Below, one piece after another: positions 21,898 through 55,872 of a stretch of DNA of 64,000 nt; within the stretch, counting starts at the first letter, position 1, and every line of letters begins with the position of its first letter. A program made the translations under genes and the position numbers. This DNA is from an uncultured Acidobacteriia bacterium (GTDB lineage: Bacteria; Acidobacteriota; Terriglobia; Bryobacterales; Bryobacteraceae): contig CAIKAS010000364.1 of the NCBI GenBank assembly GCA_903825445.1, forward strand, positions 26,298-90,297. Reading direction: 5' to 3'. The notes beneath the pieces were generated by a model that saw only the letters and a list, made by a program, of their open reading frames with translations, was not told the DNA's origin and searched no databases.

Positions 21898-21937
21898 TTC
21901 GTTTTCTCCTCTTTTTGATCGATTTTTGGGCTGCGGT

Positions 21938-31341: not shown

Positions 31342-31370
31342 TTGACATCGCCTCCAATATACCCTATACT
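31342..31370 (+). promoter_or_regulatory. sigma70-type promoter candidate (TTGACA-17-TATACT)
   Basis: TTGACA at 31342..31347, a 17-bp spacer, then TATACT at 31365..31370. It would drive a ~245-nt leader before the ORF at 31622. Confidence 0.5.
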
Positions 31371-31621: not shown

Positions 31622-32053
31622 ATGGCATGGGGAATGGAAAGAGATCTTATACCTGTAATTACGCGCCTCTCAAATCAGGCGAAGAGCATTGATGAGGCCG
31701 TGGAACTGCTCCAGGCGGTTCTTGCCGGAGAAATAGGCGGTGCCTTGGTTCTGCTCGAGCCTTTCGACGCAGGGTCGCCCCGGGTGGCAAAGGCCACTTC
31801 GGACTTCATGGAGTCGCGCCGGTTTCCGTTTCGCGGACTCTACACGGCGCCACTGGTAGTAGGCAAAGTCCAGGTCGGTAAGCTGATCGCATGCTTCGGA
31901 TCGTTCGGCGTGCCCGGAAAAGAACTCCCCACACTGACCACACACGTGGCAGAACAGCTGAGCGCCGTTCTCGCCCGGACGTGCCGTAATCGCTATACAG
32001 CTGCCGTCTCCTTCGCCACCCCACTGGCGGTGTTGCAACCGGAGGCAGCGTGA
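31622..32053 (+). CDS. small GAF-like domain protein (hypothetical)
   Basis: 143-aa ORF with an A-rich RBS region upstream. Its pattern (ALVLLEP...LYTAPLVVGKVQVGKLIACF...HVAEQLSAVLAR) resembles a GAF fold. Its stop overlaps the next start (GTGATG). Confidence 0.45.
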   Translation: MAWGMERDLIPVITRLSNQAKSIDEAVELLQAVLAGEIGGALVLLEPFDAGSPRVAKATSDFMESRRFPFRGLYTAPLVVGKVQVGKLIACFGSFGVPGKELPTLTTHVAEQLSAVLARTCRNRYTAAVSFATPLAVLQPEAA

Positions 32054-33066
32054 TGAGTGTCCAGGCCAAAAAAGGAATTTCTGTTTTCCCGCGCCTTCGG
32101 CACCGGCACGGCGGAGAGCGCGACCGCACAGTTCGGACTATTGCTGCGAATGCCGCGCTGTGGCCCGACGCCACCGCATTCGCTCTGCCTGACGACTCTC
32201 CGTCGCCCCATGATTCGAAACCGGCTGAGAATTCGCCCATCAAAGTTCTGCTTGTCAATGCACACCCGGACGACGAATCCGAGAGCGCCGGTGTTGTCTA
32301 CCGCATCTCGCACGAATTGGGAGGCACCGTCGATCAGGTCGTCATCACCAACGGCGAAGGCGGCTACCAGTACTCCGCGCCCGCCGAAGCATTTTACCGG
32401 CTCCCCTTGACCAATCCAACCGACGGCCGCCAGCTTCTCAGCCAGATTCGGCGCGAGGAGCTCATGCGCTCCAGCCGCATCCTTGGCATTCGCGATAACT
32501 ATTTTCTTGACCAGACCGATACAGGCGCCACTCTGCGTGCGGAAGACGCGTTCGACGTCTGGGATGTCGCACGGATCCGTCAGGAACTCCGCACTCTGCT
32601 GGAGTTCGGCGGCTACAACGTCATACTGCTGCTGCTTCCCACTGCGAAGACCCACGGGCACCATCAGACCGTGGCCGCAATTACCCTCGACGTCCTGAAT
32701 GACATGGCCCCGGAAGATCGCCCCGCTGCGGTCGGCGTGCAAACGACTTCTCCCGCCGAAGGTTTTTCTGAACTGGGCGGCTACGCTCTGACGCGCACCA
32801 CCAGCTCAACTCCCGCATGGCAGTTCGATCGCCGGACGCCTCTTGCCTGCCATCCAACTCTGGACTACAGCATCGTCGTGAACTGGGCCATCGCCGAGCA
32901 CAAAACGCAGGGGCTGTTCCAGTTGGAGAATGCTCGGCGAACTCACGAGCATTTCTGGCTGTTCAGTGCTTCCGGCGAAACAGGCGCCGCGAAGTGGAGC
33001 GAGTTCCTGAAGCTCCTGGAGCTCGGCACATCGGAAGTGCGCCTCGCGCAGGAATCCGTGGCCTAA
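32050..33066 (+). CDS. PIG-L family deacetylase (LmbE/MshB/BshB-like)
   Basis: 338-aa ORF with VLLVNAHPDDESESAG and VVITNGEGG, the PIG-L zinc-deacetylase signature, and a later HGHHQ. Confidence 0.8.
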   Translation: MMSVQAKKGISVFPRLRHRHGGERDRTVRTIAANAALWPDATAFALPDDSPSPHDSKPAENSPIKVLLVNAHPDDESESAGVVYRISHELGGTVDQVVITNGEGGYQYSAPAEAFYRLPLTNPTDGRQLLSQIRREELMRSSRILGIRDNYFLDQTDTGATLRAEDAFDVWDVARIRQELRTLLEFGGYNVILLLLPTAKTHGHHQTVAAITLDVLNDMAPEDRPAAVGVQTTSPAEGFSELGGYALTRTTSSTPAWQFDRRTPLACHPTLDYSIVVNWAIAEHKTQGLFQLENARRTHEHFWLFSASGETGAAKWSEFLKLLELGTSEVRLAQESVA

Positions 33067-33077: not shown

Positions 33078-33797
33078 ATGGAAGACCGAAAGATAAAACC
33101 GAAGCCGTTTCGGAACAGTTTGTCGACACTCGCGCAACTCGCATTGCAGGAAGCGGGCGCTATTGGCTATGCAATTTTCAAAAGGCTTCCGAATTCAACT
33201 GACATTCTCCGCCAGGATGCGTCTGGTGTGGCTATAGACGAGGCAGCTGTCCGGCAAGGTGCTGCAGGAGTGCTTCTGTGGCCGCTGGGGGCCGATGGAA
33301 TTCTGGCGTTCGTTTTTTCGGACGAGAGTAATGCCAGGCGCGCCCAACCGCAACTGGACCGCATTGCCAAAGCCATCGATTCAGTGTGGTCTGCCGCCCA
33401 CGCTGCAGCCCGTTATTCTGACCTCGCCAATCAGGTTGCCGACCTCGAAGCGAGCCTGATGGATTCCAGAATCGCCGATCGCGCACGCGGCTTCATCGGA
33501 AATCGCGAACATGCCGACGCACTCGATGCCATCGCCCGACATGTGGAAACCGTTCTGCGCCCCGCCTCAACAGCTCAGGTGCTGGAACAACGGTCGCGGG
33601 ATCTGGAAGAAGAAGTCGAAGAACGCCGCCTAACCAAACGGGCGAAAACCATTCTTCAGAATGTCCATGGAATGTCCGAAGAACAAGCGCACGCTCATCT
33701 GCGCCAAATCAGCCGTAAGACAAGACGAAAACTGAAAGACGTCGCTGTTGATCTTATTGCAGGAAATAAAACAAATTCATTGACTCACGCAGATTAA
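33078..33797 (+). CDS. GAF-like + ANTAR domain RNA-binding regulator
   Basis: ORF 32817..33797. I moved the start to ATG 33078, 11 nt after the PIG-L stop. The C-terminus RLTKRAKTILQNVHGMSEEQAHAHLRQISRKTRRKLKDVAVDLI is an ANTAR domain. The N-terminal half is GAF-like. Confidence 0.75.
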   Translation: MEDRKIKPKPFRNSLSTLAQLALQEAGAIGYAIFKRLPNSTDILRQDASGVAIDEAAVRQGAAGVLLWPLGADGILAFVFSDESNARRAQPQLDRIAKAIDSVWSAAHAAARYSDLANQVADLEASLMDSRIADRARGFIGNREHADALDAIARHVETVLRPASTAQVLEQRSRDLEEEVEERRLTKRAKTILQNVHGMSEEQAHAHLRQISRKTRRKLKDVAVDLIAGNKTNSLTHAD

Positions 33798-33982
33798 TCA
33801 TAGTAATCTAGATCAAAATACTAGAGTACGCCTCAACGGCATCTCTGTATATTTTCTAACTAGCCTCTCCTGTCCGCAGCCTGCGTTGACCCGAGAGGTT
33901 CCCATGACCGGAAGGCTCTCAGCGCAGCCTTAGTTTCGCCGCGACGCACCGAATCGAAATTCAGTGACATCGAGGGAAACCC

Positions 33983-36900
33983 ATGAAGTTTTTCATTACG
34001 GCAGTTCTATTCGCAAGCCTGGCTTTCGGACAAACATTCCAGGGAAGTCTGCGCGGCAGAATTCTCGACCAAAGCGGCAGTACCGAGCCATCCGCCAAAG
34101 TCACCATCACCGACGAAGCCACCCAGGTGAGCCGTTCCACTGTGACGAACGAGCAGGGAGAGTACGTGTTCAACTCCGTCATCCCTGCCACCTACTCGCT
34201 TGCCGTGGAAGCCCCTGGCTTCAAGAAATCCGAGCGAAAAGGGGTCGAGGTCGGCACCCATGAAGCTGTCGGTGTGGACGTCACCCTTCAACTCGGCCAG
34301 GTCACGGAATCCGTCAACGTGGTAGACGACGCTCCGCCACTCGAAACCGAGTCCGCTTCCACCGGTCAACAAATCACAACCCAGCAAATCGAAGATCTCC
34401 CCTCACTCGGGCGGAATTCGTTCTTCTTCGCCAAGCTCGCACAGTCGGTCGTCTTCGCCAACAATCCGGTGATGGGTCGCATGCAGGATCAAAACGCCAA
34501 CTCTCAGGTTTCGATCGCTGGCGGGCCCATCCGCACGAACAACGCGCTGGTCGATGGCATCTCCATCACCGATTCGAACAATCGCGCTGTATTCATTCCC
34601 TCGCCTGAAGCCGTGCAGGAAGTGAAACTGCAAGCCAACACCTACGATGCCGATGCGGGCCGCACCGGCGGCGGCACCTTCAACTCAACACTGAAATCCG
34701 GCACCAACGATCTGCATGGCAGCGCCGTAGGCCACATTCGCTTCACGGATCTGCTGGCCAACAATTATTTCTCCAACGCATCTGGCCAGGCAAGACCGAA
34801 CCAGCCCTTCAAAGACTGGGCCGCATCACTCGGCGGCCCTGTCGTCATCCCCAAAGTCTTCAACGGCCGTAACAAGCTCTTCTTCTTTGTTGCCACGGAG
34901 GCCTACCGCGAACTCGATCCCTCCAACACTTACAACCAGGTGCCCACTCTCGCCGAGCGCAACGGGGACTTCTCCCAGAGCCTTTATAGCAAGGGTGGCC
35001 AGCAGGTCATCTACGATCCGTTCAACACCAATGCCGCGGGAGCGCGCATCCCCTTCGCCGGAAACATCATTCCCTCCAGCCGTCTCAGTCCCATCGGTCT
35101 TGCACTCGCTTCCTACTACCCGAAGCCGAACACAGCCGTCCCGTACTATGGCTCGAACGACTATATCTACACAGGCGCATATCCGAACCGCGGCGATCAA
35201 TACACGAATAAGGCTGACGATCAGCTGACAAACTGGCTGCGCCTCTCCGGCTCCTACATTCACCAGAAGACCGGCGAAACTGACAACCCGTCTACGTTCG
35301 GCAACATCGCCTCACCCGGCCAGACGCTGCTCTTCCGCCGCATTGATGCCACTGCGGCCAATGCGACCGCAACCCTGAATCCCACCACCGTCCTCACGGT
35401 TCGCTGGGGCTTCAATCGCTTCTATTCCGCGACCTTCCCGACTGCCAGCGCGGGTTTCGATCTCACGACTCTGGGCTTCCCCTCGTCGCTTCAGGCGATC
35501 ACACCCGATACCGCTTTCCCCGCCATCACTACAAGCGACCTGACCAGCTACGGAGGCGGCTCCACAAACAGCGACATCTATTATTCCCGCACCTCCAGCG
35601 TGACTCTCGCCAAGTTCCTCGGCAAGCATAGTCTCAAAGCCGGCTTCGACTTCCGAACACTGCACGATTACGGCATCCCTGCCACCGGTCCCACGAGCCT
35701 GAGCTTCTCCCCAGTCTTCACACAGGCCAACGGAACCACCGCCACTCCCGGAACCGGCGCCAGCCTCGCCACCATGCTGCTGGGTTATCCCACTGGCGGC
35801 AGCATGACCGTAATCTCGCCCTTCGACGATTACCTTCGCTACTACGGCGGCTATGTTCAGGACGACTATCGCGTCACCTCGAAGCTCACCGTGAACTTCG
35901 GCCTTCGCCTCGAACACGAGTCCGGCATTCAGGAAGAGAACAACCACCTGATCAGTTCCTTCAGCCCCACCGCCGTGAATCCAGCCACAGCACTGGCAGG
36001 CATCGCCGTGAACGGAGCAGTTCAGTATGCGGGCGTCAATGGCAATCCAACACAAACCGGCAGTCCCTTGGCAGTCAAGTTCTCTCCGCGCGCTGGCTTT
36101 GCTTATTCGCTCGACAACAAGACGGTGGTCCGGGGCGGCTACGGCATCTACTGGGCGCCTTCGTTCTTCAGTTTTCAGAACACCGTCGGCTACTCACAGA
36201 CCACGTCCATCATCACCTCCACCAATGGCAACGTAACGCCCGCAGGGTCGCTCTCAAATCCCTACCCCAACGGGCTGCTCCAGCCGACGGGCAATACTCT
36301 CGGAGCCCTCTCCGGCATCGGTCAGGCCCTCACCGTATTCTCGCCAACTTCTGGTTCCGCCGGTTACGTGCAGGAATATTCCGTTGAACTGCAAAGACAA
36401 GCTCCCGCCGGAGTCGTACTCACCACGGGCTTCATCGGCTCTCATTCGCTGCATCTCAACGACAGCGGCCAGAATATCGATCAGCTCAACCCGTCGAACT
36501 TCTCACTCGGCAGCGCGGCATTGACGAAGGCCGTCACCAATCCGTTCTACGGAATTCCCAATGTGGGCGTCGGCTCTCTGGCCAACAAAACCGTCAGCGC
36601 GGAACAGCTGTTGCTGCCCTTCCCGCAATACACCTCGGTCGCGCTGAATAACAACGACGCGGGCCGCGCCATCTACTACTCCGTCTACATTCGCGGCCAG
36701 CGCAAGCTCGCCAAAGGCCTCACCCTGCTTGCCTCATACACCTGGTCACGCAATGAGACAGATGTCCTCGGCGTCAGCACCGCCGGCGCCTCCGGCATAA
36801 CGGGAATTTCCGGCGCGCAGAATGCCTACAACCTCGCCGCCGAGTGGAGCCTCGCAACGCAGGATGTACCCAACCGGTTTACATCGGCCATCACTTACCA

Positions 36901-37432
36901 GCTGCCGTTCGGACACGGCCAGCAATTCCTCGCCAATAGCCGCGCACTGGACGAAGTCGTCGGCGGCTGGCAGCTCAACGTCACCAGCATCATCCAGTCT
37001 GGCTTTCCGCTCGATGTCACACAAACCAACGCCAACAGCGTGATTGGCGCCAGCTACCAGCTCCCCAACGCCACCGGCATTGCGCCCGCCACCAGCGGTT
37101 CGACTGATTCCCGTCTTGGCGGCGCCAACGGCAGCACCGGCTGGCTCAATCCGGCGGCATTCTCGCAAGCTCCCGTACTGACGTTCGGCGATATCAGCCG
37201 CTTCCTCAACGTGCGCGGACCAGGGTTGTACAACTGGGACGCCTCGCTGTTCAAAACGTTCTCCGTCAAGGAAAAAGTGAAGGCCCAGTTCCGCGCCGAA
37301 GCGCTGAACTTGACCAACACTCCGCAGTTCGGCAATCCGAGTACTTCGATCAACAGCGCAACGTTTGGACAGATCACCACCGAAATCAATCACCCGAGAA
37401 TTGTGCAACTCGGCGTTCGAATCACTTTCTAA
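33983..37432 (+). CDS. TonB-dependent receptor with N-terminal carboxypeptidase-regulatory-like domain
   Basis: 1149-aa ORF with a signal peptide. The CarboxypepD_reg part is GSLRGRILDQSGSTEPSAKVTITDEATQVSRSTVTNEQGEYVFNSVIPATYSL. It also has a plug region and a long beta-barrel ending in the aromatic residue ...GVRITF. Confidence 0.85.
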   Translation: MKFFITAVLFASLAFGQTFQGSLRGRILDQSGSTEPSAKVTITDEATQVSRSTVTNEQGEYVFNSVIPATYSLAVEAPGFKKSERKGVEVGTHEAVGVDVTLQLGQVTESVNVVDDAPPLETESASTGQQITTQQIEDLPSLGRNSFFFAKLAQSVVFANNPVMGRMQDQNANSQVSIAGGPIRTNNALVDGISITDSNNRAVFIPSPEAVQEVKLQANTYDADAGRTGGGTFNSTLKSGTNDLHGSAVGHIRFTDLLANNYFSNASGQARPNQPFKDWAASLGGPVVIPKVFNGRNKLFFFVATEAYRELDPSNTYNQVPTLAERNGDFSQSLYSKGGQQVIYDPFNTNAAGARIPFAGNIIPSSRLSPIGLALASYYPKPNTAVPYYGSNDYIYTGAYPNRGDQYTNKADDQLTNWLRLSGSYIHQKTGETDNPSTFGNIASPGQTLLFRRIDATAANATATLNPTTVLTVRWGFNRFYSATFPTASAGFDLTTLGFPSSLQAITPDTAFPAITTSDLTSYGGGSTNSDIYYSRTSSVTLAKFLGKHSLKAGFDFRTLHDYGIPATGPTSLSFSPVFTQANGTTATPGTGASLATMLLGYPTGGSMTVISPFDDYLRYYGGYVQDDYRVTSKLTVNFGLRLEHESGIQEENNHLISSFSPTAVNPATALAGIAVNGAVQYAGVNGNPTQTGSPLAVKFSPRAGFAYSLDNKTVVRGGYGIYWAPSFFSFQNTVGYSQTTSIITSTNGNVTPAGSLSNPYPNGLLQPTGNTLGALSGIGQALTVFSPTSGSAGYVQEYSVELQRQAPAGVVLTTGFIGSHSLHLNDSGQNIDQLNPSNFSLGSAALTKAVTNPFYGIPNVGVGSLANKTVSAEQLLLPFPQYTSVALNNNDAGRAIYYSVYIRGQRKLAKGLTLLASYTWSRNETDVLGVSTAGASGITGISGAQNAYNLAAEWSLATQDVPNRFTSAITYQLPFGHGQQFLANSRALDEVVGGWQLNVTSIIQSGFPLDVTQTNANSVIGASYQLPNATGIAPATSGSTDSRLGGANGSTGWLNPAAFSQAPVLTFGDISRFLNVRGPGLYNWDASLFKTFSVKEKVKAQFRAEALNLTNTPQFGNPSTSINSATFGQITTEINHPRIVQLGVRITF

Positions 37433-37437
37433 GGACG

Positions 37438-38829
37438 GTGCAGACCGATATGAGAAATCACTCGTTGTTCTCGCTGAAAATCACGATCGCCGCCGGCATG
37501 GCCGCCCTGCTCTGGTCAGTCTTGCCCGCGCACGGCCAGATCGCCGTGCAGAAGCAGGGCTACATCCCGTTCACCGACGAGCCCATTAACTATCGCTCGA
37601 ACGACCTGAACGATCCCGTCGCCAAACTCGAGAAGCACCTCGAAAAAGGCGAGGTCGCCCTGCAGTACGAACCGAAGAACGGCTACCTGCGTTCCGTCCT
37701 GCAGTTGCTCGACATTCCCGTCAGTTCCCAAACGTTGGTCTTCTCAAAAACCAGCTTTCAATACAAGAAAATCACTCCTGAAACCCCGCGAGCTCTCTTC
37801 TTCAACGACGACGTTTACGTTGGCCAGGTGCACGACGGCAAAGCCCTGGAATTCGTATCCTTCGACCCGATGCAGGGCGCCATCTTCTACCTGCTGGACG
37901 AGCAGAAGTCCGAGCATCCGGTGCTTCAACGCGCCGAGCTCGATTGCACGCAATGCCACATCGCCGCCTCCACGCATAACGTCCCCGGCGTCTTCCTGCG
38001 CTCGGTCTTCACACAGCCCGGCGGGACGCTCGTAGCCAAAACCCCGCAGTACATCACCGGCCAGCAGAGTCCGCTCAGCGAGCGGTGGGGCGGCTGGTAC
38101 GTCACTGGCACTTCCGAGCCGCACATCGGAAATGTCACAGTGCCAGACACGGATCATGCCAACCAACTCGACAAGACGACCGGAAGCAACGTCACCGATC
38201 TGTCGAAGTTCTTCGATACGTCCGCCTATCTCTCCGTCCACAGCGACATCGTCGCGCACTTAGTGCTGGCCCACCAGACCCAGATGCACAACCTGATCAC
38301 GCAGACGAACTACCAGGCGCGCATCGCCGCATACAACGAAGCCGCGAAAAACAAACTTGCAGGCCTTCCAGAGAACTCTCCGCTCTCCGACGCGGCTCGC
38401 AGAAAATATGAAGCTCCCGCCGAAGAACTCGTTCGCTATCTGCTCTTCGCCAACGAGGCTCCTCTCAAGGCGCCTGTCAAAGGCGATTCCGGTTTCACCG
38501 AAGAATTCGCCGCACGTGGTATTCGCGATCCCCAGGGACGCTCCCTCCGCGACTTCGATTTACAGACCCGGATTTTCAGATATCCCTGCAGCTATCTGAT
38601 TTACTCCGAGGCTTTCGATTCTTTGCCCAGGCCCGCCAAAGACTACGTGTACCGCCGGTTACTGGACGTTCTCACCGGCGCCGACCAGAGTCCGGACTTT
38701 GCCCGCTTGACGGCAAAGGACCGGAAGGCTGTGCTCGAAATCCTCCTCGCCACGAAGCCTGCGATGCACGACGCATGGAAGGAATTCAACGCCCAGCAGG
38801 ATAAGCAATACAGAACCCAGAACAACTGA
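37438..38829 (+). CDS. secreted hypothetical protein with one CxxCH haem-c motif
   Basis: 463-aa ORF 5 nt after the receptor gene (alternative start ATG 37450). It has a signal peptide and a single CTQCH motif. I recognise no other family. Confidence 0.55.
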   Translation: MQTDMRNHSLFSLKITIAAGMAALLWSVLPAHGQIAVQKQGYIPFTDEPINYRSNDLNDPVAKLEKHLEKGEVALQYEPKNGYLRSVLQLLDIPVSSQTLVFSKTSFQYKKITPETPRALFFNDDVYVGQVHDGKALEFVSFDPMQGAIFYLLDEQKSEHPVLQRAELDCTQCHIAASTHNVPGVFLRSVFTQPGGTLVAKTPQYITGQQSPLSERWGGWYVTGTSEPHIGNVTVPDTDHANQLDKTTGSNVTDLSKFFDTSAYLSVHSDIVAHLVLAHQTQMHNLITQTNYQARIAAYNEAAKNKLAGLPENSPLSDAARRKYEAPAEELVRYLLFANEAPLKAPVKGDSGFTEEFAARGIRDPQGRSLRDFDLQTRIFRYPCSYLIYSEAFDSLPRPAKDYVYRRLLDVLTGADQSPDFARLTAKDRKAVLEILLATKPAMHDAWKEFNAQQDKQYRTQNN

Positions 38830-38866
38830 AGCAAAAACGCACCCGTTTGAAAGGAACCAAAACCGC

Positions 38867-40168
38867 ATGAACACCTTTACCAAAACCAGCGCCGCCCTCG
38901 CGGTCGGCATTCTGTCCACCTTCGCAACCGCTGCCAGCGCCCAGAGTCTCGAAGGCCGCTGGGACGCCAGCCTCGTCCAGCGCAATACCGTAATCCCCTT
39001 CCGGCTCGATATCTCCGGCTCGGGACCAACCCTCAAAGCCACCTTCTACGACGGCTGGAAGGCAAACGAAACCACCACGGCGGCAAAGTTTGAGAACGGC
39101 GTCTTGACGCTCGAACTCGGCCACTATCTCACCACCATTACCGCGAATTACAAAGACGGGCAACTTACCGGTTCACTCGGCTCCACCTCGCGCCAGGGTA
39201 GCGCCAGCTACGGTTTTCAGGCGAAGCCGTACGTCGCTCCCACCAACCTCGCGACAGACTATCCCAACATCGCCGGCACATGGGAGATCCCGCTCGAGAA
39301 GCCGACCGCCAAGGGTGAAAAGACTCAGCGCTTCGTCGTCCAGCAGGATGGCCCGAACATCGCCGCCACCACCTTACGCGTGGATGGTGACAGTGGCTCG
39401 CATGTCGGAACTTACAAAGACGGCAACTGGGTGATCAGCCATTTCGATGGCTCACGCCCCGGCTTGCTCGAAGTAAAACTGAACGCCGATGGAACGCTGG
39501 AAATTAGCCAGGGCGGCGGTCGACGCCCAGCCGCCGCAACTGACGAAGCCGCACCCGGCAAGTTGATCGCATATCGCCCCGAAGTAGCCCGCGCCAAAGG
39601 TTTCCCGGAGCCGGAGAACTATCTCACTCACACCACCGTCCGCGATCCCAATGAGAAGTTCGCGTTCAGCTTCCCCGATGCCAACGGCAAGCTGCGCTCA
39701 AACACCGATCCCGAATTCACCGGCAAAGTCGTCCTCGCCGTCGTGACCGGCACCTGGTGCCCCAACTGCCACGATGAAGCGCAGTATCTGGTCCAGCTCT
39801 ACAAGAAGTATCACGCACAAGGCCTGGAAATAGTAGCGTTGGATTTTGAAGAAGCCGAGCAGCAGGGTTCCCTCGAACGTGTCCACGCCTTCGTGAAACA
39901 GTACCAGGTGCCGTACCCGTATCTCATCGCGGGCGCGCCGGTGGAGATGTGGGAAAAAGTCCCACAGGCGGTGAATCTGAACACCTGGCCGGCGACAATC
40001 TTCGTCGGTCGCGACGGTCTCGTGAAAAGCGTTCATTCGGGCTTCGCGTCTCCCGCAGCCGGAGTGTTCAACGACCAGCTGAAGGCCGAGTTCACCTCGA
40101 CTGTCGAAAAACTGCTCTCGGACAAGCCGGTGAGCAGTTCGCCGGTGGCGTCGAAGGCCGGTTTCTAA
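38867..40168 (+). CDS. TlpA/ResA-like thiol-disulfide oxidoreductase with ~270-aa unknown N-terminal domain
   Basis: 433-aa ORF with a signal peptide. The thioredoxin fold carries the WCPNC active site (VVLAVVTGTWCPNCHDEAQYL) and GLEIVALDFEEAEQ. It is a full-length paralogue of 46179..47411. Confidence 0.8.
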   Translation: MNTFTKTSAALAVGILSTFATAASAQSLEGRWDASLVQRNTVIPFRLDISGSGPTLKATFYDGWKANETTTAAKFENGVLTLELGHYLTTITANYKDGQLTGSLGSTSRQGSASYGFQAKPYVAPTNLATDYPNIAGTWEIPLEKPTAKGEKTQRFVVQQDGPNIAATTLRVDGDSGSHVGTYKDGNWVISHFDGSRPGLLEVKLNADGTLEISQGGGRRPAAATDEAAPGKLIAYRPEVARAKGFPEPENYLTHTTVRDPNEKFAFSFPDANGKLRSNTDPEFTGKVVLAVVTGTWCPNCHDEAQYLVQLYKKYHAQGLEIVALDFEEAEQQGSLERVHAFVKQYQVPYPYLIAGAPVEMWEKVPQAVNLNTWPATIFVGRDGLVKSVHSGFASPAAGVFNDQLKAEFTSTVEKLLSDKPVSSSPVASKAGF

Positions 40169-40183
40169 ACAGATCGGAGGAGA

Positions 40184-40219
40184 TTCCCCGCCAGTCGTAT
40201 CAACACGGCTGGCGGGGAA
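40184..40219 (+). other. intercistronic 11-bp perfect hairpin
   Basis: TTCCCCGCCAG (40184..40194), a 14-nt loop, then CTGGCGGGGAA (40209..40219). No U-tract follows. It lies between the tlpA-like and dsbD-alpha-like genes. Confidence 0.5.
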
Positions 40220-40235
40220 CAAAACTGTAAACCCT

Positions 40236-40709
40236 ATGAAAATGACCGCAGGAAAATGCCCGCTCGTTCTCGTCGTCGCCGCACTTGCCTTTGCGCAAGG
40301 CAGCCCGATTGTTTTGACGTTCGCCCCACCTGCCAGCCTCACCGCGAAGCCTGGCTCAACCGCGAATACTACTCTCTCCGTCACCGTCGCCCCCGGCTAT
40401 CACGCCAACAGCAATAAGCCTGTGGACCCATACCTAATTCCGCTCCAGCTAAGTTGGAATCCGGGCCCGCTGACAGCAGCCGGTGTCATTTTCCCGAAGC
40501 CCGAAACACAGAAACTCGGATTCTCCGCGAAGCCAGTATCCGTATTCACCGGCAATTTCAATATTGAAACGAAATTCAAAGTAGCCAGCAACGCAACTCC
40601 GGGCACAACGACTGTGACCGGAAAGCTGCACTACCAGGCCTGCGACGACCGTTCCTGCCTTCCCCCAAGAACGATTGAAGTGACGCTGCCCGTAACGATT
40701 GCGAAGTAG
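40236..40709 (+). CDS. DsbD N-terminal (alpha) domain-like protein (DsbC-corrector family)
   Basis: 157-aa ORF with a signal peptide. GKLHYQACDDRSCLPPRTIEV carries the Cys pair and CLPP context typical of the DsbD-alpha/ScsB N-terminal domain. Confidence 0.65.
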   Translation: MKMTAGKCPLVLVVAALAFAQGSPIVLTFAPPASLTAKPGSTANTTLSVTVAPGYHANSNKPVDPYLIPLQLSWNPGPLTAAGVIFPKPETQKLGFSAKPVSVFTGNFNIETKFKVASNATPGTTTVTGKLHYQACDDRSCLPPRTIEVTLPVTIAK

Positions 40710-40723
40710 AGGAGATCTCTGAA

Positions 40724-41686
40724 ATGAAGATTCTTGAGCTTAATAGAAACGCTTACAAAACGCTGCTGGCCGCCGCCGCATCCGGCCTCATCCTTACCCT
40801 CGCCGCAGTGCAAGTCTGCGCGCAATCGTTGGGCGGATCGCCTGCAACAGGTTCGCCTTCCCCCAACGCTGCGCCTGGAGCCGTCGCTGCCAGCGGCGCC
40901 CGTTCCGGCAGAGGCGGTCGTGGCGGCCCCATCCCCACCGGCCCCACTCCGCGCACCGCCGATGGACATCCCGATCTCACAGGCTCCTGGAGAGACGATG
41001 GCAACGCGAAGCCGCACGGTAACCTGGGCAAGGATCTGCCCGGCTTCAAGCTTCCCTTTACCCCGGCCGGCGTCGCGGCCCACGAGTATAACGTCAATCG
41101 CACCATCGATCCCGAAAGCCTCTGCCTTCCCGGCGGACTTCCCAGAGAAGACATCGGCGACGGCGGTTTCCAGCTGCTACAATCCGGCCCCGACGCGGTC
41201 TTCCTCTACATGTATGGAACCTTCCGCGACGTTCCCATCGATGGCCGCAAACATACGGAAGATCCGGACCCAACATTCTTCGGTGAAGACGTCGGCAGCT
41301 GGGATGGCGATACGCTCGTCATCGACTCCATCGCGTTCAAAGACCAAAAGACGTGGGCCGACGAAAACGCCGATCCCCACAGCGATCAGCTTCACACCAT
41401 CGAACGCTGGACCCGTTCCGATGCCGGTCACCTGCACCTCGACCTCATCGTCGACGATCCGAAGTTCTACTCACAGCCCATTCACTACCAGCGCAACTGG
41501 ATAGCTTCGGTCGGCCAGCACACCAGAGAACAGGCCTGCTCAGAGAACAATTTCGATGTGGCTGGCGGACACCTCGGCTTCGGCCCCGGTCCCATCCGCG
41601 CCGACGGAACTCGTGGCTACGACAATCCCGCGCCGTTGCCACCGCCTCCTTCAAAGACGAATCCGCCGAAGACAACCTTGCAGTAA
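40724..41686 (+). CDS. secreted hypothetical protein
   Basis: 320-aa ORF 14 nt after the previous gene. It has a signal peptide, a Gly/Pro/Ala-rich linker, then a globular region (ADGHPDLTGSWRDD...WDGDTLVIDSIAF...LHTIERWTR). I recognise no family. Confidence 0.55.
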   Translation: MKILELNRNAYKTLLAAAASGLILTLAAVQVCAQSLGGSPATGSPSPNAAPGAVAASGARSGRGGRGGPIPTGPTPRTADGHPDLTGSWRDDGNAKPHGNLGKDLPGFKLPFTPAGVAAHEYNVNRTIDPESLCLPGGLPREDIGDGGFQLLQSGPDAVFLYMYGTFRDVPIDGRKHTEDPDPTFFGEDVGSWDGDTLVIDSIAFKDQKTWADENADPHSDQLHTIERWTRSDAGHLHLDLIVDDPKFYSQPIHYQRNWIASVGQHTREQACSENNFDVAGGHLGFGPGPIRADGTRGYDNPAPLPPPPSKTNPPKTTLQ

Positions 41687-41711
41687 CCACGCTAACTAAG
41701 GAGCAAAGAAC

Positions 41712-42128
41712 ATGAGACACATTCTGGGATTACTTACCGTCATGGCCATCGGGCTGGCCACATTTGTCGCACCCGTCAGCGCCCACCATTCGTTTGCCGC
41801 CGAGTTTGATGGCAGCAAGGCCATCCGCCTCGTTGGGAAACTGACGAAGGTCGACTGGTCGAACCCCCACACCTACTTCTTTCTGGATATCCAGGACGAT
41901 AAAGGCAAGGTCACGAATTGGGCCTGTGAAGGCGGCGGCCCGGGCGCGCTGTCTCGACGCGGCCTCAACAAGGGTGATCTAAAACTCGGCGACACCATCG
42001 TCGTTGACGGTTATCGCGCCAAAGATGGATCCAACCTGATCGACGCGCGGCGCGTCACGCTGCCGGACGGTCGCAGCATTTACGGTGGCACCCCGGGTGA
42101 CGGTGGCCCAGGCGACAACGGCCAGTAG
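41712..42128 (+). CDS. small periplasmic protein, DUF6152-like; predicted mature N-terminus HHSF
   Basis: 138-aa ORF with RBS AAGGAG upstream. The signal peptide ends ...APVSA followed by HHSFAAEFD. The motif KVDWSNPHTYFFLD is present. The DUF6152 assignment is from memory. Confidence 0.55.
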   Translation: MRHILGLLTVMAIGLATFVAPVSAHHSFAAEFDGSKAIRLVGKLTKVDWSNPHTYFFLDIQDDKGKVTNWACEGGGPGALSRRGLNKGDLKLGDTIVVDGYRAKDGSNLIDARRVTLPDGRSIYGGTPGDGGPGDNGQ

Positions 42129-42626
42129 ATGTCCGCTTCCCTGCTGCAATTCTGTCAATGGCTGAACGATACCGGCCCTGCCACCGCGCTGCGTGAATCG
42201 AAGTATATGTTTCCGATCGTCGAATCGGTTCACACGCTCGCCATCACGCTGGTGGTGGGGACCGTGGCCATATTGGATCTTCGCCTTCTTGGTCTGATCC
42301 TCAAAAAAGAACCCGTGTCCAAAGTGGCCAACCAGATTTTACCGGTCACATGGAAAGGCTTCGTTGTGATGGCAATCAGCGGCCTGGCGCTTTTCGCGGC
42401 GGAAGCTGCGAAGTCGTATCACAATCCCGCGTTTCGGTTCAAATTAATCCTGCTCGCGCTGGTCGGTCTCAATCCTCTGATCTTTCATTTCACGATTTAC
42501 AAAACGGTCGACCAGTGGGGCGGAGCACCCCGCGCTCCCGGTCGCGCTCGCCTCGCTGCCGTTCTGTCCCTAAGTCTCTGGAGTGCGATTGTCATCGCCG
42601 GCCGCGCTATCGCCTATTTCAACTAA
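42129..42626 (+). CDS. polytopic membrane protein, paralogue 1 of 4 (DUF6644-like)
   Basis: 165-aa ORF starting directly after the previous stop. Shared motifs are ESVHTLA, DLRLLG, YHNPAFRFK, AAVLSLSLW and GRAIAYF. Confidence 0.6.
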   Translation: MSASLLQFCQWLNDTGPATALRESKYMFPIVESVHTLAITLVVGTVAILDLRLLGLILKKEPVSKVANQILPVTWKGFVVMAISGLALFAAEAAKSYHNPAFRFKLILLALVGLNPLIFHFTIYKTVDQWGGAPRAPGRARLAAVLSLSLWSAIVIAGRAIAYFN

Positions 42627-42633
42627 AACTGAT

Positions 42634-43110
42634 ATGTCCATTCTCTCTCTGTTTCAGTGGTATGACCACACGGGCCTCGCCGACTGGATGCATCGCTCCG
42701 CATGGGGATTCGCCGTAGTCGAAATGTTCCACCTGATCGCGCTCGCATTGTTCGGCGGCGCGGTTCTGATGCTGAACCTCCGGCTGCTTGGCATCTTCCT
42801 TCCTGGACGGCCCGCCGGTCAAATCGCGCGCGATCTTGCCCCGTTGATCTTCGGCACGCTCGTCGTCCTGGCGATCACAGGCGTCCTGATGATTTCGGAA
42901 GAAGCGATGAAGTGTTATCACAACACCGCATTCCGCTGGAAGATGCTGCTATTTCTACCTGCGTTGCTTCTCAGCGTGGGAATGCATCGCAGGCTCGCAA
43001 CTTCGCCGGGGTCATTCGCCTCTGAGAGTACCGCCAGATTCGCCGCGGTGCTCTCTCTGACGCTTTGGTTCAGCGTGGGCGTGGCAGGCAGAGCAGTCGG
43101 CTATCTCTAA
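42634..43110 (+). CDS. polytopic membrane protein, paralogue 2 of 4 (DUF6644-like)
   Basis: ORF 42583..43110, start moved to ATG 42634 by alignment with the paralogues. Motifs: EMFHLIA, NLRLLG, YHNTAFRWK, AAVLSLTLW, GRAVGYL. Confidence 0.6.
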   Translation: MSILSLFQWYDHTGLADWMHRSAWGFAVVEMFHLIALALFGGAVLMLNLRLLGIFLPGRPAGQIARDLAPLIFGTLVVLAITGVLMISEEAMKCYHNTAFRWKMLLFLPALLLSVGMHRRLATSPGSFASESTARFAAVLSLTLWFSVGVAGRAVGYL

Positions 43111-43130
43111 ACGCTAACCCACAAGCAACC

Positions 43131-43574
43131 ATGCTCATCTACGATCTCGCCGCCAATCCGCTCAACAGTAACGAGTGGTCCTTCCCTCTCACGGAATGCT
43201 TCCACGTCGCGTCCATGGCGCTTTGCATCGGCACCATTGCGGTCGTCGACCTGCGACTCCTCGGTGCAGGCATCACGAACCGAACCGCAGGGCAACTCGT
43301 TCGCCTCACCGACCCCTGGAGCATCGCCGGATTCAGCATCGTCATCACCTCCGGCCTGCTGATCTTCTCGTCCGATCCGCTCAAGTATCTCCACAGCGCA
43401 CCGTTCCAGCTCAAGATGGGACTTCTCCTGCTCGGCATTCTCTACAACTACACGCTCCATCGCAAAGCCGCGCGGTCCGATCCGCCGCCTGGCATTCGAT
43501 TCCTCGCCGCCGCCTTCTCCCTCGCACTGTGGACGACGCTCGTGTTCTCGTCAATTTTTGTGGCCTTTTGGTAA
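43131..43574 (+). CDS. polytopic membrane protein, paralogue 3 of 4 (DUF6644-like)
   Basis: ORF 43065..43574, start moved to ATG 43131. Motifs: ECFHVAS, DLRLLG, YLHSAPFQLK, AAAFSLALW. Confidence 0.6.
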   Translation: MLIYDLAANPLNSNEWSFPLTECFHVASMALCIGTIAVVDLRLLGAGITNRTAGQLVRLTDPWSIAGFSIVITSGLLIFSSDPLKYLHSAPFQLKMGLLLLGILYNYTLHRKAARSDPPPGIRFLAAAFSLALWTTLVFSSIFVAFW

Positions 43575-43589
43575 AGGAATCCAACAATC

Positions 43590-44141
43590 ATGTCTATCGC
43601 GCAGATTTTCCATTGGACGCAGAACACCGCCTGGGCCACAGCTCTCCGCGAGTCGGACGTGGTCTACCCCGTCGTTCTCTCGCTTCATCTGTCCGCCATC
43701 GCGCTTTTCGGCGGCACCATCCTGCTCACCAATCTGCGTTTGCTCGGCCTCGCGCTTCGTCAAATTCCTGTCGCTGAGGTCGTCAAACAACTCCGTCCGT
43801 ATAAGTGGGCTGGCTTGGTCCTGATCCTCACGTGCGGCGTGCTGCTGGCCTCCGCCAAGGCGGACACCTATTACCCCAATCCGTATTTCCGAATCAAAAT
43901 CCTGCTGATCTCACTCGTGGGTGTCCACGCACTCATCTTCCGGCGAGGCGTTTACAACAAGGATGCGGGCGTCGCGCCTCCCAAAGCCAAACTTGCCGCC
44001 TGCCTGTCTCTGGCTCTGTGGCTGGGCATCCTGTCGATGGGCCGCTGGATCGCCTATTATGAAAAACCGAAGTCTGTACGGGCGTCTCCGAGCGCCTCAA
44101 ATTCTTCCACTGCGCTGATCGCGGCGGAGATTGCCCGATAA
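43590..44141 (+). CDS. polytopic membrane protein, paralogue 4 of 4 (DUF6644-like) with C-terminal tail
   Basis: 183-aa ORF. Motifs: LSLHLSA, NLRLLG, YYPNPYFRIK, AACLSLALW, GRWIAYY. It carries an extra ~25-aa Ser/Ala-rich tail. Confidence 0.6.
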   Translation: MSIAQIFHWTQNTAWATALRESDVVYPVVLSLHLSAIALFGGTILLTNLRLLGLALRQIPVAEVVKQLRPYKWAGLVLILTCGVLLASAKADTYYPNPYFRIKILLISLVGVHALIFRRGVYNKDAGVAPPKAKLAACLSLALWLGILSMGRWIAYYEKPKSVRASPSASNSSTALIAAEIAR

Positions 44142-44165: not shown

Positions 44166-44786
44166 CTAACCTTCGTCAGGTGCTTCGCCTCGCCGCGGAA
44201 TTCCCTTCCCCGCAGCCTCGGCTCCCGGTGGTTCACGGAACGGTTCCACCTCGATGCGCCCGTAGCGCACTTCGAGCACGGTCAGATAGTCTGTACCGCC
44301 CGGCGCCTGGAGAACCACGTTGTCGCCCTCTGCCGACTTCATCAACGCCCGCCCAAGCGGCGACACCCAACTGACGTGGTTGCGGTTGAGATCCACCTCG
44401 TCGGCGCCCACAATGCTCACCACCCGCTCCGCTCCCGCGGCATTGGCATAGCGCACAGTTGCTCCGAAGAATGCCCTCGCCGCCGCCGGTCCGCGTCTCG
44501 GAGTTTCCGGGTCAACCACCTCCGCGGCCTCGATTCGTTTCGTGAGAAACCGAATCCGCCCATCGATCTGCCGCAGCCGCCGCTTGCCGTACTGATAGTC
44601 GGCGTTTTCACTGCGATCGCCATTGCTCGCCGCCCACGACACCACCGCCGTCACCGCCGGGCGTTCCCTCGTGAGTAAGAACCGGTGCTCGTCTTTGAGG
44701 CGCTCCAGCCCGCCTGGCGTGATGTAATTCTTGCCAGGTGTCGCGGGCTCGTCCCGCTTCGGTTCTCTCGTAAACCCTTTCCGCAT
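44166..44786 (-). CDS. greB: transcription elongation factor GreB
   Basis: 206-aa ORF. ITPGGLERLKDE...WAASNGDRSENADYQYGKRRLRQIDGRIRFL closely matches the GreB coiled-coil signature (WAASxGDRSENADYQY). The C-terminal FKBP-like domain has SWVSPLGRALM. Confidence 0.85.
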   Translation of the reverse strand: MRKGFTREPKRDEPATPGKNYITPGGLERLKDEHRFLLTRERPAVTAVVSWAASNGDRSENADYQYGKRRLRQIDGRIRFLTKRIEAAEVVDPETPRRGPAAARAFFGATVRYANAAGAERVVSIVGADEVDLNRNHVSWVSPLGRALMKSAEGDNVVLQAPGGTDYLTVLEVRYGRIEVEPFREPPGAEAAGKGIPRRGEAPDEG

Positions 44787-46178: not shown

Positions 46179-47411
46179 TTACTTCCTCGCAGTCTGTGAA
46201 TTCTCCGCCAGCAGTTTCTCCACTCGCTCCACGAATTCCTTCTTCTCCTTCTCGTAGAGAACTCCGCTCCCTGAACTTGGGAAGCCCGCATGCACGCCCT
46301 TCACCAGCCCGTCGCGACCCACAAAGAACGTCGTCGGCCACGCATTCCAGTTCTGCGCCTGCGTCAGTTTTTCCTTCGCGCTGCCCGTTTCGCCGGCTAA
46401 CAGCACCGTGTACTTAATGCCGTTCTGCTTGATAAACGCCCGCAGGCGCGTCGGGTTCGCCACCTGCTCCGCCTCTTCAAACGACAGCGCGATAATCTCC
46501 AGTCCCTTGCTGTGGTACTTGTTGTAAACCTCTGCCAGGAACGGCGCTTCGTCATGGCAATTCGGGCACCAGCTGCCCGTGATGTTAATCAGCACCACCT
46601 TGCCCTGAAATCGGGCATCGGTGTTCGATACGGTCTTCCCGTCCAGATCCGGAAAACTGAATGGAAACGGCTGCGTCGCGTCCTTCACCGTCGTGAAGGA
46701 ATTAGCGTCAGTCGGCTCCGCCAGGCCCTTCGCCTTGACCTCTTCCGGCCGGATCGCGACGACCGTTCCGCCCCCGCGCCCGCTCCCCTGATCTACCGAC
46801 AACGTACCGTTTTCCTGCGGCGTGATCGTCCAAATTGCCGGACGTGACCCATCGAAGTGGCTGACCACAAACTTGCCGTCCTGCCAGCCGCCCGTCAGTG
46901 CGCCAGTGTCGCCATCTACCCGAAGAATCGACGCCGTGACGTCGTTGCCTTTCTGTGTCACCACCAGATTCCACGCCTTCTCGCCCTTGCTGCTCTTAAC
47001 GTCTTCAATCACCCACACACCCGCCACATTCGGTGCCGGCGTCTTCGGAGCCGCCTGCGGGCGGTTGGGGACCGCGTGGATCGGTGAGGGCGCACCCGAC
47101 CTTCCACCCCGCGAAGTCGACCAATCGCCGTCCAGGGAGCCGTCTTTAAGGGTCAGCTTCAGAACCCCCAGATAACTATCGAAATTCAGAACCAGCGAGC
47201 CATTCTCATATGTGCCGCCGCTGGATATCAGCTTGCCGTCCCCGTTAAAGAACCAACCCTTTACGTCGGAGCCCGATCCCGAAAAGCCAATCTTGAACGG
47301 AATCTCCGTTGTGCCTTGCTTTAAAGTCGCGTCCCAGAGTCCGTCAATGGTCTGTGCCTGCATTCCGGCTACAACAGACAAGAACAGGATGCTAATTCGT
47401 CTGATCTTCAT
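46179..47411 (-). CDS. TlpA/ResA-like thiol-disulfide oxidoreductase, second paralogue
   Basis: 410-aa ORF with a signal peptide. It has the WCPNC active site (VVLINITGSWCPNCHDEAPFL) and GLEIIALSFEEAEQ. It is collinear over its full length with 38867..40168, including the unknown N-terminal domain (GxWDAxLxQ..TxIPF, LRVDGDxG, SHFDGSRP). Confidence 0.8.
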   Translation of the reverse strand: MKIRRISILFLSVVAGMQAQTIDGLWDATLKQGTTEIPFKIGFSGSGSDVKGWFFNGDGKLISSGGTYENGSLVLNFDSYLGVLKLTLKDGSLDGDWSTSRGGRSGAPSPIHAVPNRPQAAPKTPAPNVAGVWVIEDVKSSKGEKAWNLVVTQKGNDVTASILRVDGDTGALTGGWQDGKFVVSHFDGSRPAIWTITPQENGTLSVDQGSGRGGGTVVAIRPEEVKAKGLAEPTDANSFTTVKDATQPFPFSFPDLDGKTVSNTDARFQGKVVLINITGSWCPNCHDEAPFLAEVYNKYHSKGLEIIALSFEEAEQVANPTRLRAFIKQNGIKYTVLLAGETGSAKEKLTQAQNWNAWPTTFFVGRDGLVKGVHAGFPSSGSGVLYEKEKKEFVERVEKLLAENSQTARK

Positions 47412-53717: not shown

Positions 53718-53731
53718 GCCCTAAACCTAAT

Positions 53732-55867: not shown

Positions 55868-55872
55868 ACGCT

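Follow-up and report, generated by a model that had tools for sequence, protein, structure and literature searches.

A conserved envelope gene cluster beside a desulfurase encapsulin in an acidobacterial genome, possibly part of a sulfur-limitation island

We sought to understand what a run of ten envelope genes might do in an uncultured Acidobacteriia bacterium of the family Bryobacteraceae. The genes occupy positions 33983-44141 of a 64,000-nucleotide (nt) stretch of DNA (positions 26,298 to 90,297 of contig CAIKAS010000364.1, assembly GCA_903825445.1), which we analysed as a whole and refer to as the window. A preliminary description of the letters had listed an outer-membrane importer, a haem-c protein, a thiol-redox pair and several proteins of no recognised family, and had offered either copper handling or the uptake and reduction of an oxidised substrate as explanations. 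We found that the ten genes are a real, conserved and uncharacterised envelope gene cluster and not a chance neighbourhood. Because the cluster lies beside a sulfur-storing compartment and encodes proteins almost without sulfur amino acids, we read it as serving sulfur scavenging under scarcity. The reading we favour, at a probability of roughly 0.5, is that the ten genes would form the envelope arm of an uptake system that sulfur limitation induces and that includes redox processing in the periplasm. That figure covers the reading overall; we place more weight on a sulfur-limitation island as such and much less on any particular chemistry. At the same even odds, the island would span about 31.3-50.3 kb and take in PIG-L and ANTAR genes, the ten-gene block, a second TlpA-like gene and a SrpI encapsulin with its cysteine desulfurase. 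The ten genes, all on the + strand, are as follows (aa, amino acids).

33983-37432, +, TonB-dependent outer-membrane receptor, 1149 aa, with CarboxypepD_reg and OMP_b-brl_4 domains
37438-38829, +, C463, exported protein with a CTQCH motif, no Pfam, NCBIfam or PDB match
38867-40168, +, Tlp433, exported TlpA/ResA-like protein of the Redoxin/AhpC-TSA type
40236-40709, +, stand-alone DsbD-alpha domain protein (DsbD_N, PF11412), 157 aa
40724-41686, +, U320, exported protein of an unnamed family, no Pfam or NCBIfam match
41712-42128, +, small exported DUF6152 protein (PF19649)
42129-42626, +, DUF6644 membrane protein, A type (Pfam and alignment)
42634-43110, +, DUF6644 membrane protein, B type (Pfam and alignment)
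43131-43574, +, divergent DUF6644 paralogue with the B-type deletion, below the Pfam cut-off
43590-44141, +, DUF6644 membrane protein, nearer the A type (Pfam and alignment)

The architecture of the block proved to be as first described. All ten open reading frames (ORFs) and their common strand were recovered in an ORF check, the intergenic gaps recomputed identically (5, 37, 67, 14, 25, 0, 7, 20 and 15 nt), and each motif and domain that had been named was found again by Pfam scan and in the sequence. The block is one co-directional unit. A consensus scan gave no convincing + strand terminator within 33983-44141, and the start of the transcription unit may lie further upstream, at a promoter-like site at 31342-31370. 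On inspection, all six non-membrane proteins of the block carry a hydrophobic N-terminal leader. The ANTAR gene (PF03861) upstream and the second TlpA-like gene downstream (46179-47411, - strand) are both present. A DsbD-beta/CcdA membrane partner had been called absent from the window, which agrees with our hydropathy scan, a crude one that used no profile, in that it returned zero six-transmembrane ORFs of about 240 aa.

If the ten genes act together, then the set should be kept in other genomes. A genome scan anchored on C463 gave 80 loci, and the window proteins were then searched against the ORFs of 82 loci; comparison loci are referred to by L numbers. Neighbour clustering was based on greedy gene calls, stop-to-stop ORFs being too noisy, and most of the roughly 170 loci were compared only with the window proteins, so that neighbour annotation is partial. 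The C463 loci belong to Acidobacteriota (Bryobacterales, Terriglobia, Blastocatellia), Planctomycetota, one Acidimicrobiia metagenome-assembled genome (MAG), Gammaproteobacteria (Steroidobacteraceae, Pseudoxanthomonas) and Alphaproteobacteria (Caulobacter, Rhizobiales). Among the 82 loci the TonB receptor was present in 18, U320, DUF6152 and DsbD_N in 16 each, the cysteine desulfurase in 13, a DUF6644 pair in nine, and ANTAR and SrpI in seven each. The exact ten-gene order is repeated in a Bryobacterales MAG (L062) and a metagenome contig (L087). Elsewhere the set is shuffled: a gammaproteobacterial MAG (L019) reads DUF6152, DUF6644, DUF6644, U320, DsbD_N, C463, Tlp; in L084 the desulfurase, SrpI and receptor genes share one strand, the opposite strand carries C463, Tlp and DsbD_N, and ANTAR, DUF6152 and U320 lie alongside; and the complete genome of Granulicella sp. 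5B5 (L083) has the gene set rearranged. The families thus co-occur in dozens of loci from several phyla. Since the gene set is kept although its order and orientation are shuffled, this is good evidence for a functional link. Co-occurrence outside the source genome, the test that the preliminary description had set for itself, was found across phyla and did not refute it. The cluster is modular, consisting of a C463-Tlp core, a module of DUF6152 and U320 (with or without DUF6644 A and B) that is also found without the other parts, DsbD_N, and the receptor. Cultured carriers are Granulicella sp. 5B5, Terriglobus roseus, Paludibaculum fermentans, Bryocella elongata and Occallatibacter savannae.

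We then asked what lies beside the cluster. Downstream of the block the window encodes three further genes that bear on its role.

46179-47411, -, Tlp410, a paralogue of Tlp433 (45% identity over the full length), divergent from the encapsulin gene
47770-48693, +, type 2A encapsulin shell protein, SrpI-like (PF19307, E=2.8e-107)
48674-50317, +, cysteine desulfurase, 547 aa (PF00266, E=1.5e-144, residues 160-529)

The encapsulin and desulfurase genes (47770-50317, +) start 3.6 kb downstream of the ten-gene block; the preliminary description ended at 44141 and covered neither this pair nor the amino acid composition considered below. The first ~150 aa of the desulfurase, ahead of its PF00266 domain, are Pro/Ala-rich, and this extension fits a putative encapsulin cargo. 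A SrpI shell gene followed by a desulfurase is the arrangement described for desulfurase-loaded encapsulins (PMC8049743, PMC10836720), and the pair resembles the family 2A operons of Synechococcus elongatus (SrpI) and Acinetobacter baumannii, in which the desulfurase has a disordered N-terminal extension. For published family 2A systems, that is the encapsulated desulfurase together with SrpI, induction by sulfur starvation has been reported, as has the storage of elemental sulfur by the A. baumannii system (PMC8049743, PMC10836720). Rhodanese and serine O-acetyltransferase have been described as accessory genes of desulfurase encapsulins (PMC8346489, PMC10836720); neither was found between 44 and 52 kb of the window. 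The locus differs from the published operons in having ten envelope genes, mostly of uncharacterised families, as neighbours, and a rhodanese occurs only in L013. The encapsulin literature that we searched mentions neither TonB nor Acidobacteria, and thioredoxin only for an unrelated system.

The neighbourhood is not peculiar to the window. L002 has the SrpI and desulfurase genes within the cluster itself, flanked by the U320 homologue and DUF6152, and the two genes are adjacent to the cluster in L006, L008, L009, L010, L022, L047 and L084. In a reciprocal, SrpI-anchored scan of metagenomes, 13 of 14 loci carried cluster genes (SrpI at least 83% identical to that of the window, at least 9 kb of sequence). 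This makes the encapsulin-cluster link strong, though only within part of the Acidobacteriota. Other sulfur genes recur as well. After DsbD_N, L013 encodes a two-domain rhodanese, an Rrf2 regulator, an anion-selective porin, two ATP-binding cassette (ABC) permeases and an ATPase that exceeds the sulfate-transporter cut-off (TIGR00968, 394 bits against 343), and the same sulfate-type transporter adjoins the desulfurase in L003. The order in Terriglobus roseus is DUF6152, Tlp, sulfatase, receptor, sulfatase, while Paludibaculum fermentans has Cys_Met_Meta_PP, DoxX, Tlp, two receptors, PepSY_TM, a U320-like gene, DUF6152 and two DUF6644 genes. A Cys_Met_Meta_PP gene also stands beside the cluster in Granulicella, an M19 dipeptidase is encoded in five loci, and in L009 genes for a 1-Cys peroxiredoxin and a beta-carbonic-anhydrase-family protein separate Tlp from SrpI. 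The cluster is physically linked to sulfur-assimilation genes.

Proteins made during sulfur starvation are classically poor in cysteine (Cys) and methionine (Met). We counted these residues in the proteins of the window, where genes outside the island mostly have about 3% Cys+Met.

Receptor (1149 aa): 0 Cys, 4 Met, 0.35% Cys+Met
Tlp433: 2 Cys (the catalytic pair), 1 Met, 0.69%
Tlp410: 2 Cys, 1 Met, 0.73%
Desulfurase (547 aa): 2 Cys, 3 Met, 0.92%
PIG-L: 1 Cys, 3 Met, 1.19%
U320: 3 Cys, 1 Met, 1.25%
DUF6152: 1 Cys, 1 Met, 1.46%

Across the loci, median Cys+Met was 0.39% for proteobacterial receptors, 0.43% for the M19 dipeptidase, 0.57% for the receptor, 1.19% for Tlp, 1.35% for DUF6152, 1.43% for U320, 1.78% for the desulfurase, 1.95% for SrpI and 2.02% for C463, compared with 2.51% for other exported-like genes and 2.88% for all other genes. 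Mann-Whitney tests against the exported-like set gave p values from 2e-14 to 5e-3 (receptor 2e-11, Tlp 2e-14, C463 2e-3); the controls are neighbouring genes and exported-like genes, not whole proteomes. The cluster receptors of L014, L025 and L047 have a single sulfur atom in ~1080 residues, and less related receptor paralogues in the same loci have 1.7-2.6% Cys+Met. The proteins of the cluster are strongly depleted in Cys and Met, and the desulfurase and SrpI share the bias. As a separate observation, a GreA/GreB-family transcript cleavage factor is encoded directly past the block (44166-44786, -); its 206 aa contain 0 Cys and a single Met, a sulfur content as low as that of the cluster proteins.

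The core of the cluster is C463 followed by the TlpA-like thioredoxin. Of the 82 loci, 50 have Tlp433 next to C463, nearly always directly downstream, and the adjacency holds in essentially all loci above 54% identity whose flank is long enough. C463 has 463 aa with CTQCH at residues 170-174 (DNA 37945-37959); its start is probably four codons later than called, because an identical database protein has 459 aa. It matches no Pfam or NCBIfam family. Its own family is large, with more than 8000 word-index matches, all named 'hypothetical', and 3789 representative clusters at E<=1e-3. In 43 diverse members (35-56% identity) C173 and H174 are invariant and C170 is kept in at least 90%, so that C463 is a putative haem-c protein with one invariant motif. 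It falls in no known cytochrome family, since a Pfam scan of the 43 members gave only single chance-level matches, and neither its sequence nor a 43-member profile found a relative in the PDB. An AlphaFold2 model from a 25-sequence alignment was poor (predicted local distance difference test, pLDDT, 60; predicted template-modelling score 0.45; haem region below 50 pLDDT), and Foldseek comparison of it with the PDB gave nothing below E=0.5. Two observations on neighbours of C463 may be recorded here. A cytochrome of ~150 aa (CytoC_RC-like), absent from the window, is encoded near the cluster in L015, L027, L035, L040, L048, L064 and L083, mostly just upstream of DsbD_N or C463. In a Blastocatellia MAG (L072, 497-4642), C463 directly follows nosD, a nosF-like ABC ATPase gene and nosL, which are accessory genes for the copper-sulfide centre of nitrous oxide reductase.

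Tlp433 (433 aa) has its thioredoxin domain at the C-terminus, with WCPNC at residues 297-301 (DNA 39755-39769), behind a beta-rich N-terminal region of ~260 aa that matches no family. The domain scores above the Pfam cut-offs for AhpC-TSA (46.3 bits, cut-off 26) and Redoxin (42 bits, cut-off 26.6) and is nearest to ResA and CcmG, with ResA structures in the PDB matched at E=6.5e-12. NCBIfam equivalog cut-offs are not reached (ResA 61.9 against 170, DsbE 34.6 against 123, TlpA 31 against 230). These relationships raise the question of whether any scavenging takes place at all. The proteins could be sulfur-sparing copies of housekeeping envelope proteins, with Tlp433 acting as a ResA/CcmG-type reductase for haem attachment to C463. 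Its best solved and NCBIfam relatives are indeed ResA and CcmG, the strict C463-Tlp adjacency fits an enzyme and its substrate, and the extreme Cys/Met depletion fits low-sulfur isoforms. However, Tlp433 is far under the ResA cut-off (62 against 170 bits) and has those ~260 extra N-terminal residues; C463, U320, DUF6152 and DUF6644 are without known housekeeping counterparts; and uptake is suggested by the TonB receptor together with the sulfatase, transporter and dipeptidase genes nearby. We consider this explanation very improbable.

The receptor matches PF25183 over the entire profile (E=4.6e-201, 670.8 bits, 1-838 of 838) and CarboxypepD_reg (PF13620) with 66.2 bits, E=3.3e-18. The DsbD_N protein scores 42.9 bits against PF11412 (cut-off 25), and its C-x4-C pair (CDDRSC, DNA 40641-40658) is kept in 13 of 13 orthologues; it stands alone, without a membrane beta (CcdA-like) or gamma thioredoxin domain, and the crude hydropathy scan of the window showed no membrane partner for it. 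Together, Tlp433 and this protein recall the DsbD-CcmG/ResA, TlpA and ScsB-ScsC relays, in which an exported CxxC thioredoxin fold is served by an immunoglobulin-like DsbD-alpha domain with a Cys pair. Unlike the DsbD and ScsB relays, the cluster is without a DsbD-beta/CcdA membrane domain, and its alpha domain is a separate protein. Tlp433 likewise differs from ResA, CcmG and TlpA in its large extra N-terminal region, its obligatory haem-protein neighbour and its equivalog scores. In U320 (320 aa), C134, C272 and several His, Asp and Glu residues are invariant. Its predicted fold is a beta-barrel plus a helix (model pLDDT 68, moderate), and Foldseek found only weak calycin-type matches (E ~1e-2); 'beta-barrel binder' is thus a description of U320 with no family assignment meant. 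None of the uncharacterised core families that we searched has a relative in the PDB.

The two DUF families bear on the copper explanation. The DUF6152 protein scores 97.9 bits against PF19649, over the Pfam gathering cut-off. Its mature N-terminus, right after the signal-peptide cleavage site, reads His-His-Ser-Phe (DNA 41784-41795); this HHSF and a W-x-N-P-H motif are present in 19 of 19 aligned sequences, the single Cys is not conserved, and the protein probably holds a putative metal site. Three of the DUF6644 paralogues lie over the Pfam cut-off (47.4, 58.1 and 62.2 bits); the third in gene order (43131-43574) has 24.9 bits against a cut-off of 27, and it aligns with the invariant H, R, G, F, K and W. 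The family has four hydrophobic segments and invariant H35, R52, G55, G85, F102, K105 and W151, the His being in the first helix. By alignment, the four genes of the window are a lineage-specific doubling of an A/B pair. Such a pair could share a cofactor with one His per subunit, which we offer as an idea only.

From these features one can construct a copper or metal pathway, in which DUF6152 would be a metallochaperone delivering to a CopD-like DUF6644, the TlpA-like protein and DsbD-alpha would keep metal-binding Cys residues reduced, as in Scs or in CuA assembly, and the haem protein would be a metal reductase. TlpA and ScsB/C do act in copper contexts. The mature His-His N-terminus and W-x-N-P-H of all aligned DUF6152 proteins, the invariant His in the first DUF6644 helix with the weak similarity to DUF2214, and the nos genes ahead of C463 in L072 are all in its favour, and the arrangement resembles the copper import pairs CopC-CopD and YcnI-YcnJ, where an exported protein whose first mature residue is His stands beside small polytopic membrane proteins with a conserved His. 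But DUF6644 reaches only 15-24 bits against DUF2214 (cut-off 34.1; E 3e-5 to 2e-2), and of the Pfam families concerned only DUF6152 and DUF6644 themselves are matched, with no membership in CopC, CopD or DUF1775. Copper genes were unseen in the annotated neighbourhoods, which had no copper ATPase, multicopper oxidase, CopC, CusF or PCuAC within the partial annotation noted above, and the ScsB/DsbD membrane domain is absent. A copper function would also leave the Cys/Met depletion and the recurrent sulfur-assimilation neighbours unexplained, and the C463/Tlp pair and the DUF6152/DUF6644 module can be separated from each other. Copper handling or Scs/CopCD-like protection, put forward in the preliminary description, was therefore not borne out as the main reading; we consider it unlikely, and it is weakly supported for the DUF6152/DUF6644 module only.

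How might such a cluster be controlled? The region ahead of the block contains the following features.

31342-31370, +, sigma-70-like promoter, TTGACA-17-TATACT, 11 of 12 consensus positions (a consensus match only)
31622-32053, +, 143-aa protein with no Pfam match, which travels with PIG-L and ANTAR (orthologue in the same position in L002 and L062)
32050-33066, +, PIG-L/LmbE-type deacetylase or amidase, probably cytoplasmic (PF02585, E=1.2e-14)
33078-33797, +, ANTAR-domain RNA-binding regulator (PF03861, 54 bits, cut-off 27.3)
33856-33982, +, structured 5' leader RNA with three hairpin regions (covariance model)

The promoter-like site lies ahead of the 143-aa, PIG-L and ANTAR genes. The best named family for PIG-L is BshB2 (38.5 bits against a cut-off of 195), and no signal peptide is visible in it. 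PIG-L and ANTAR are paired beside the cluster in L002, L062 and L171, and ANTAR genes adjoin it in L002, L003, L008, L009, L062, L084 and L171. The ANTAR gene probably starts at ATG 33078 and not at 32817, because the resulting 239 aa agree with homologues of 240-252 aa (L002, L084, L171); the longest ORF, from 32817, overlaps the PIG-L gene by 250 nt. The N-terminal ~170 aa of the protein match no family.

The leader, of ~125 nt, ends immediately before the receptor start codon and is conserved in L002, L003 and L062. Searched over 1.37 Mb, its covariance model matched at the 5' ends of the receptor genes of six loci and at no other place (the window, L002:6372-6492, L003:6433-6556, L062:6400-6526, L013:2181-2310 and L084:4656-4756 on the minus strand). 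Pairing holds in 95.8% of the alignment cells, and in 12 pairs both partners change, compared with 1-4 such pairs in slid controls; because the alignment had been fitted to its model, these covariation figures are somewhat inflated. The GAGGG ribosome-binding site is base-paired in the last helix, and Rfam gave no match over 31-51 kb at E<=1. The leader is a candidate ANTAR target or riboswitch. An ANTAR gene beside a structured leader is also the arrangement of the antitermination regulators EutV, NasT and AmiR. In contrast to those systems, the usual two-hexaloop target was not recognised on inspection, the last hairpin masks the ribosome-binding site, and there is no obvious terminator.

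Two shorter sequences were compared among the SrpI leaders. An 11-mer, AGTTTCGCCGC, occurs in two leaders of the window, that of the receptor and that of SrpI, within a shared stretch GCAGCC..AGTTTCGCCGC..GCACC (47607-47623, +, and 33932-33949, +). It is absent from six other SrpI leaders, and we dropped it as evidence of a shared operator or co-regulation. A 21-nt motif, ATTGTCRATRGASTTTAGTAT (47672-47692, +), lies ~80-100 nt before the SrpI start in seven loci (the window and L085-L090) and nowhere else among the sequences compared; it is probably a promoter or operator.

A different type of regulator accompanies C463 elsewhere. An Rrf2-family gene clusters with it in L013, L028, L052, L059, L060, L061, L063, L066, L068, L076, L078, L080, L081 and L082, which are from Planctomycetota, one Acidimicrobiia MAG and some Bryobacteraceae. 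In the loci checked Rrf2 is directly upstream of C463, which there usually has no thioredoxin partner, and every equivalog score for a subtype (CymR, IscR, NsrR, RirA) is below cut-off. Rrf2 control would suit an economy of iron and Fe-S clusters, in which the receptor would import an iron chelate, the haem protein would reduce Fe(III), the desulfurase would serve Fe-S assembly and an IscR-like protein would govern the genes. Besides Rrf2 directly upstream of C463 in ~9 to 14 loci, this explanation can draw on the PepSY_TM protein and second, Plug-type receptor of the Paludibaculum cluster, on ferritin and DyP genes near L001 and L169, and on iron-type or phosphonate-type binding proteins after C463 in two planctomycete loci. 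Against it, the Rrf2 proteins fall short of the IscR and RirA cut-offs as of all others, no siderophore genes were seen, a haem protein, itself containing iron, would be odd as the core of an iron-starvation system, and depletion of sulfur amino acids is not expected under iron limitation. Published work moreover puts the desulfurase family in sulfur starvation and storage, not in Fe-S assembly (PMC8049743, PMC10836720). We judge iron economy to be quite unlikely. None of the three alternatives considered here accounts for both the composition bias and the recurrent sulfur neighbours.

On the favoured reading of a sulfur-limitation island, the parts could work together in the following way. 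The leader hairpin would hold the ribosome-binding site until, when sulfur is scarce, the ANTAR regulator or a small ligand opens it. The TonB-dependent receptor, to judge from its family, would then take in a scarce or bulky sulfur-bearing compound. C463, Tlp433 and DsbD-alpha are exported redox-motif proteins, and their substrate we infer: in the periplasm C463, Tlp433 (through WCPNC) and DsbD-alpha (through C-x4-C) may form a redox relay that releases or reduces a sulfur group, for example that of a disulfide, a polysulfane, a thiosulfate-type compound or a low-molecular-weight thiol disulfide. U320, DUF6152 and the DUF6644 A/B pairs would be a separable module at the membrane, providing a route for electrons or a metal cofactor, or inward transport of the product. 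In the cytoplasm the sulfur would become cysteine, and the encapsulated desulfurase could turn cysteine sulfur into a stored form, a step suggested by the published work on the encapsulin family. Of the earlier proposals, the one in which an oxidised substrate is taken up and reduced is in keeping with these results, and the context narrows it to sulfur acquisition. A more far-reaching version would have the cluster represent a previously unrecognised, multi-phylum mode of periplasmic sulfur scavenging, built on C463, U320, DUF6152 and DUF6644, in which a haem/thiol couple acts on an imported oxidised compound under a leader-RNA switch and, in Acidobacteria, feeds the encapsulin sulfur store. 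This version we hold only tentatively and think rather doubtful.

Several points weigh against the sulfur-limitation reading. Induction by sulfur limitation is something that we infer from composition and neighbourhood. Low Cys and Met contents are general among outer-membrane receptors, and the DUF6644 proteins show no sulfur depletion. Most C463 loci are without SrpI, and SrpI loci at or below 82% identity mostly lack cluster genes. In Planctomycetota C463 occurs without the thioredoxin, beside an Rrf2 regulator that is not assignable to a subtype. Finally, the cluster encodes no membrane electron donor for the thiol relay, and no substrate can be named; the C463 model (pLDDT 60) is poor and without a fold match.

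We next consider which known systems the locus resembles. The ats/sft-type loci of Pseudomonas are induced by sulfate starvation and scavenge organosulfur with a TonB-dependent receptor. They share with the present locus a TonB receptor beside sulfur-assimilation genes and sulfur-poor proteins, and in Terriglobus roseus the two sulfatases flank the receptor. They differ in that they are not known to have the haem-c protein, the thioredoxin/DsbD-alpha relay, DUF6152 or DUF6644, and the window is without a sulfatase or sulfonate monooxygenase. In the Sox oxidation system SoxAX works with the accessory thioredoxins SoxW, SoxS and SoxV. There too a periplasmic c-type haem protein meets periplasmic thioredoxins in a sulfur context, but we found no similarity to SoxA or SoxX and no SoxYZ, SoxB or SoxV/CcdA, and the direction proposed here is assimilatory and not energy-yielding. 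The locus is therefore of a known kind, namely a nutrient-limitation scavenging locus with a TonB receptor, beside a known encapsulin system. Its core consists of four uncharacterised families, whose combination with the encapsulin the literature we searched does not mention, and there is a substantial chance that the chemistry itself is new. We found no paper or solved structure for C463, U320, DUF6152 or DUF6644, and nothing relevant that combines Acidobacteria, sulfur starvation, TonB and encapsulin. Homologues in the databases are named 'hypothetical' or 'DUF6152 family', and the statement in the preliminary description that the combination is not a described system stands.

For completeness we describe the remaining neighbours. 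Directly after the desulfurase lie genes for a Flavin_Reduct-family protein (50280-50903, -) and a PAS histidine kinase (51155-52405, -), which are possible further members of the island. The four genes at 52737-57890 (+), for a multihaem cytochrome c, molybdopterin oxidoreductase, 4Fe-4S protein and NrfD-type membrane subunit, make up a set like the quinone-linked Qrc/Psr/ACIII complexes; the L002 cluster is also adjoined by a DmsC/Fer4_11 gene and a molybdopterin oxidoreductase gene. Upstream and unrelated to the cluster are a DUF1501/DUF1800 pair (20524-25381, -) and a CHAT-TPR protein (26371-29064, -). The 1147-aa protein at 21941-25381, once considered as an in-window receptor control for sulfur content, is DUF1800 and so is no control. 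No sulfur-related genes were found in the first 31 kb of the window.

Acidobacteria rank among the most abundant bacteria of soils, where most sulfur is organic or oxidised. To our knowledge, how Acidobacteria acquire sulfur is poorly known. Published work ties the desulfurase encapsulin to sulfur starvation and storage and is silent on where the sulfur comes from. If the reading of a sulfur-limitation island is true, then the cysteine-desulfurase encapsulin would gain an upstream supply route, and four large families of no assigned function, C463, U320, DUF6152 and DUF6644, would be given a physiological context that can be tested. With its covarying leader RNA the locus also offers a candidate for a new regulatory element, and the cultured carriers make the sulfur hypothesis directly testable.

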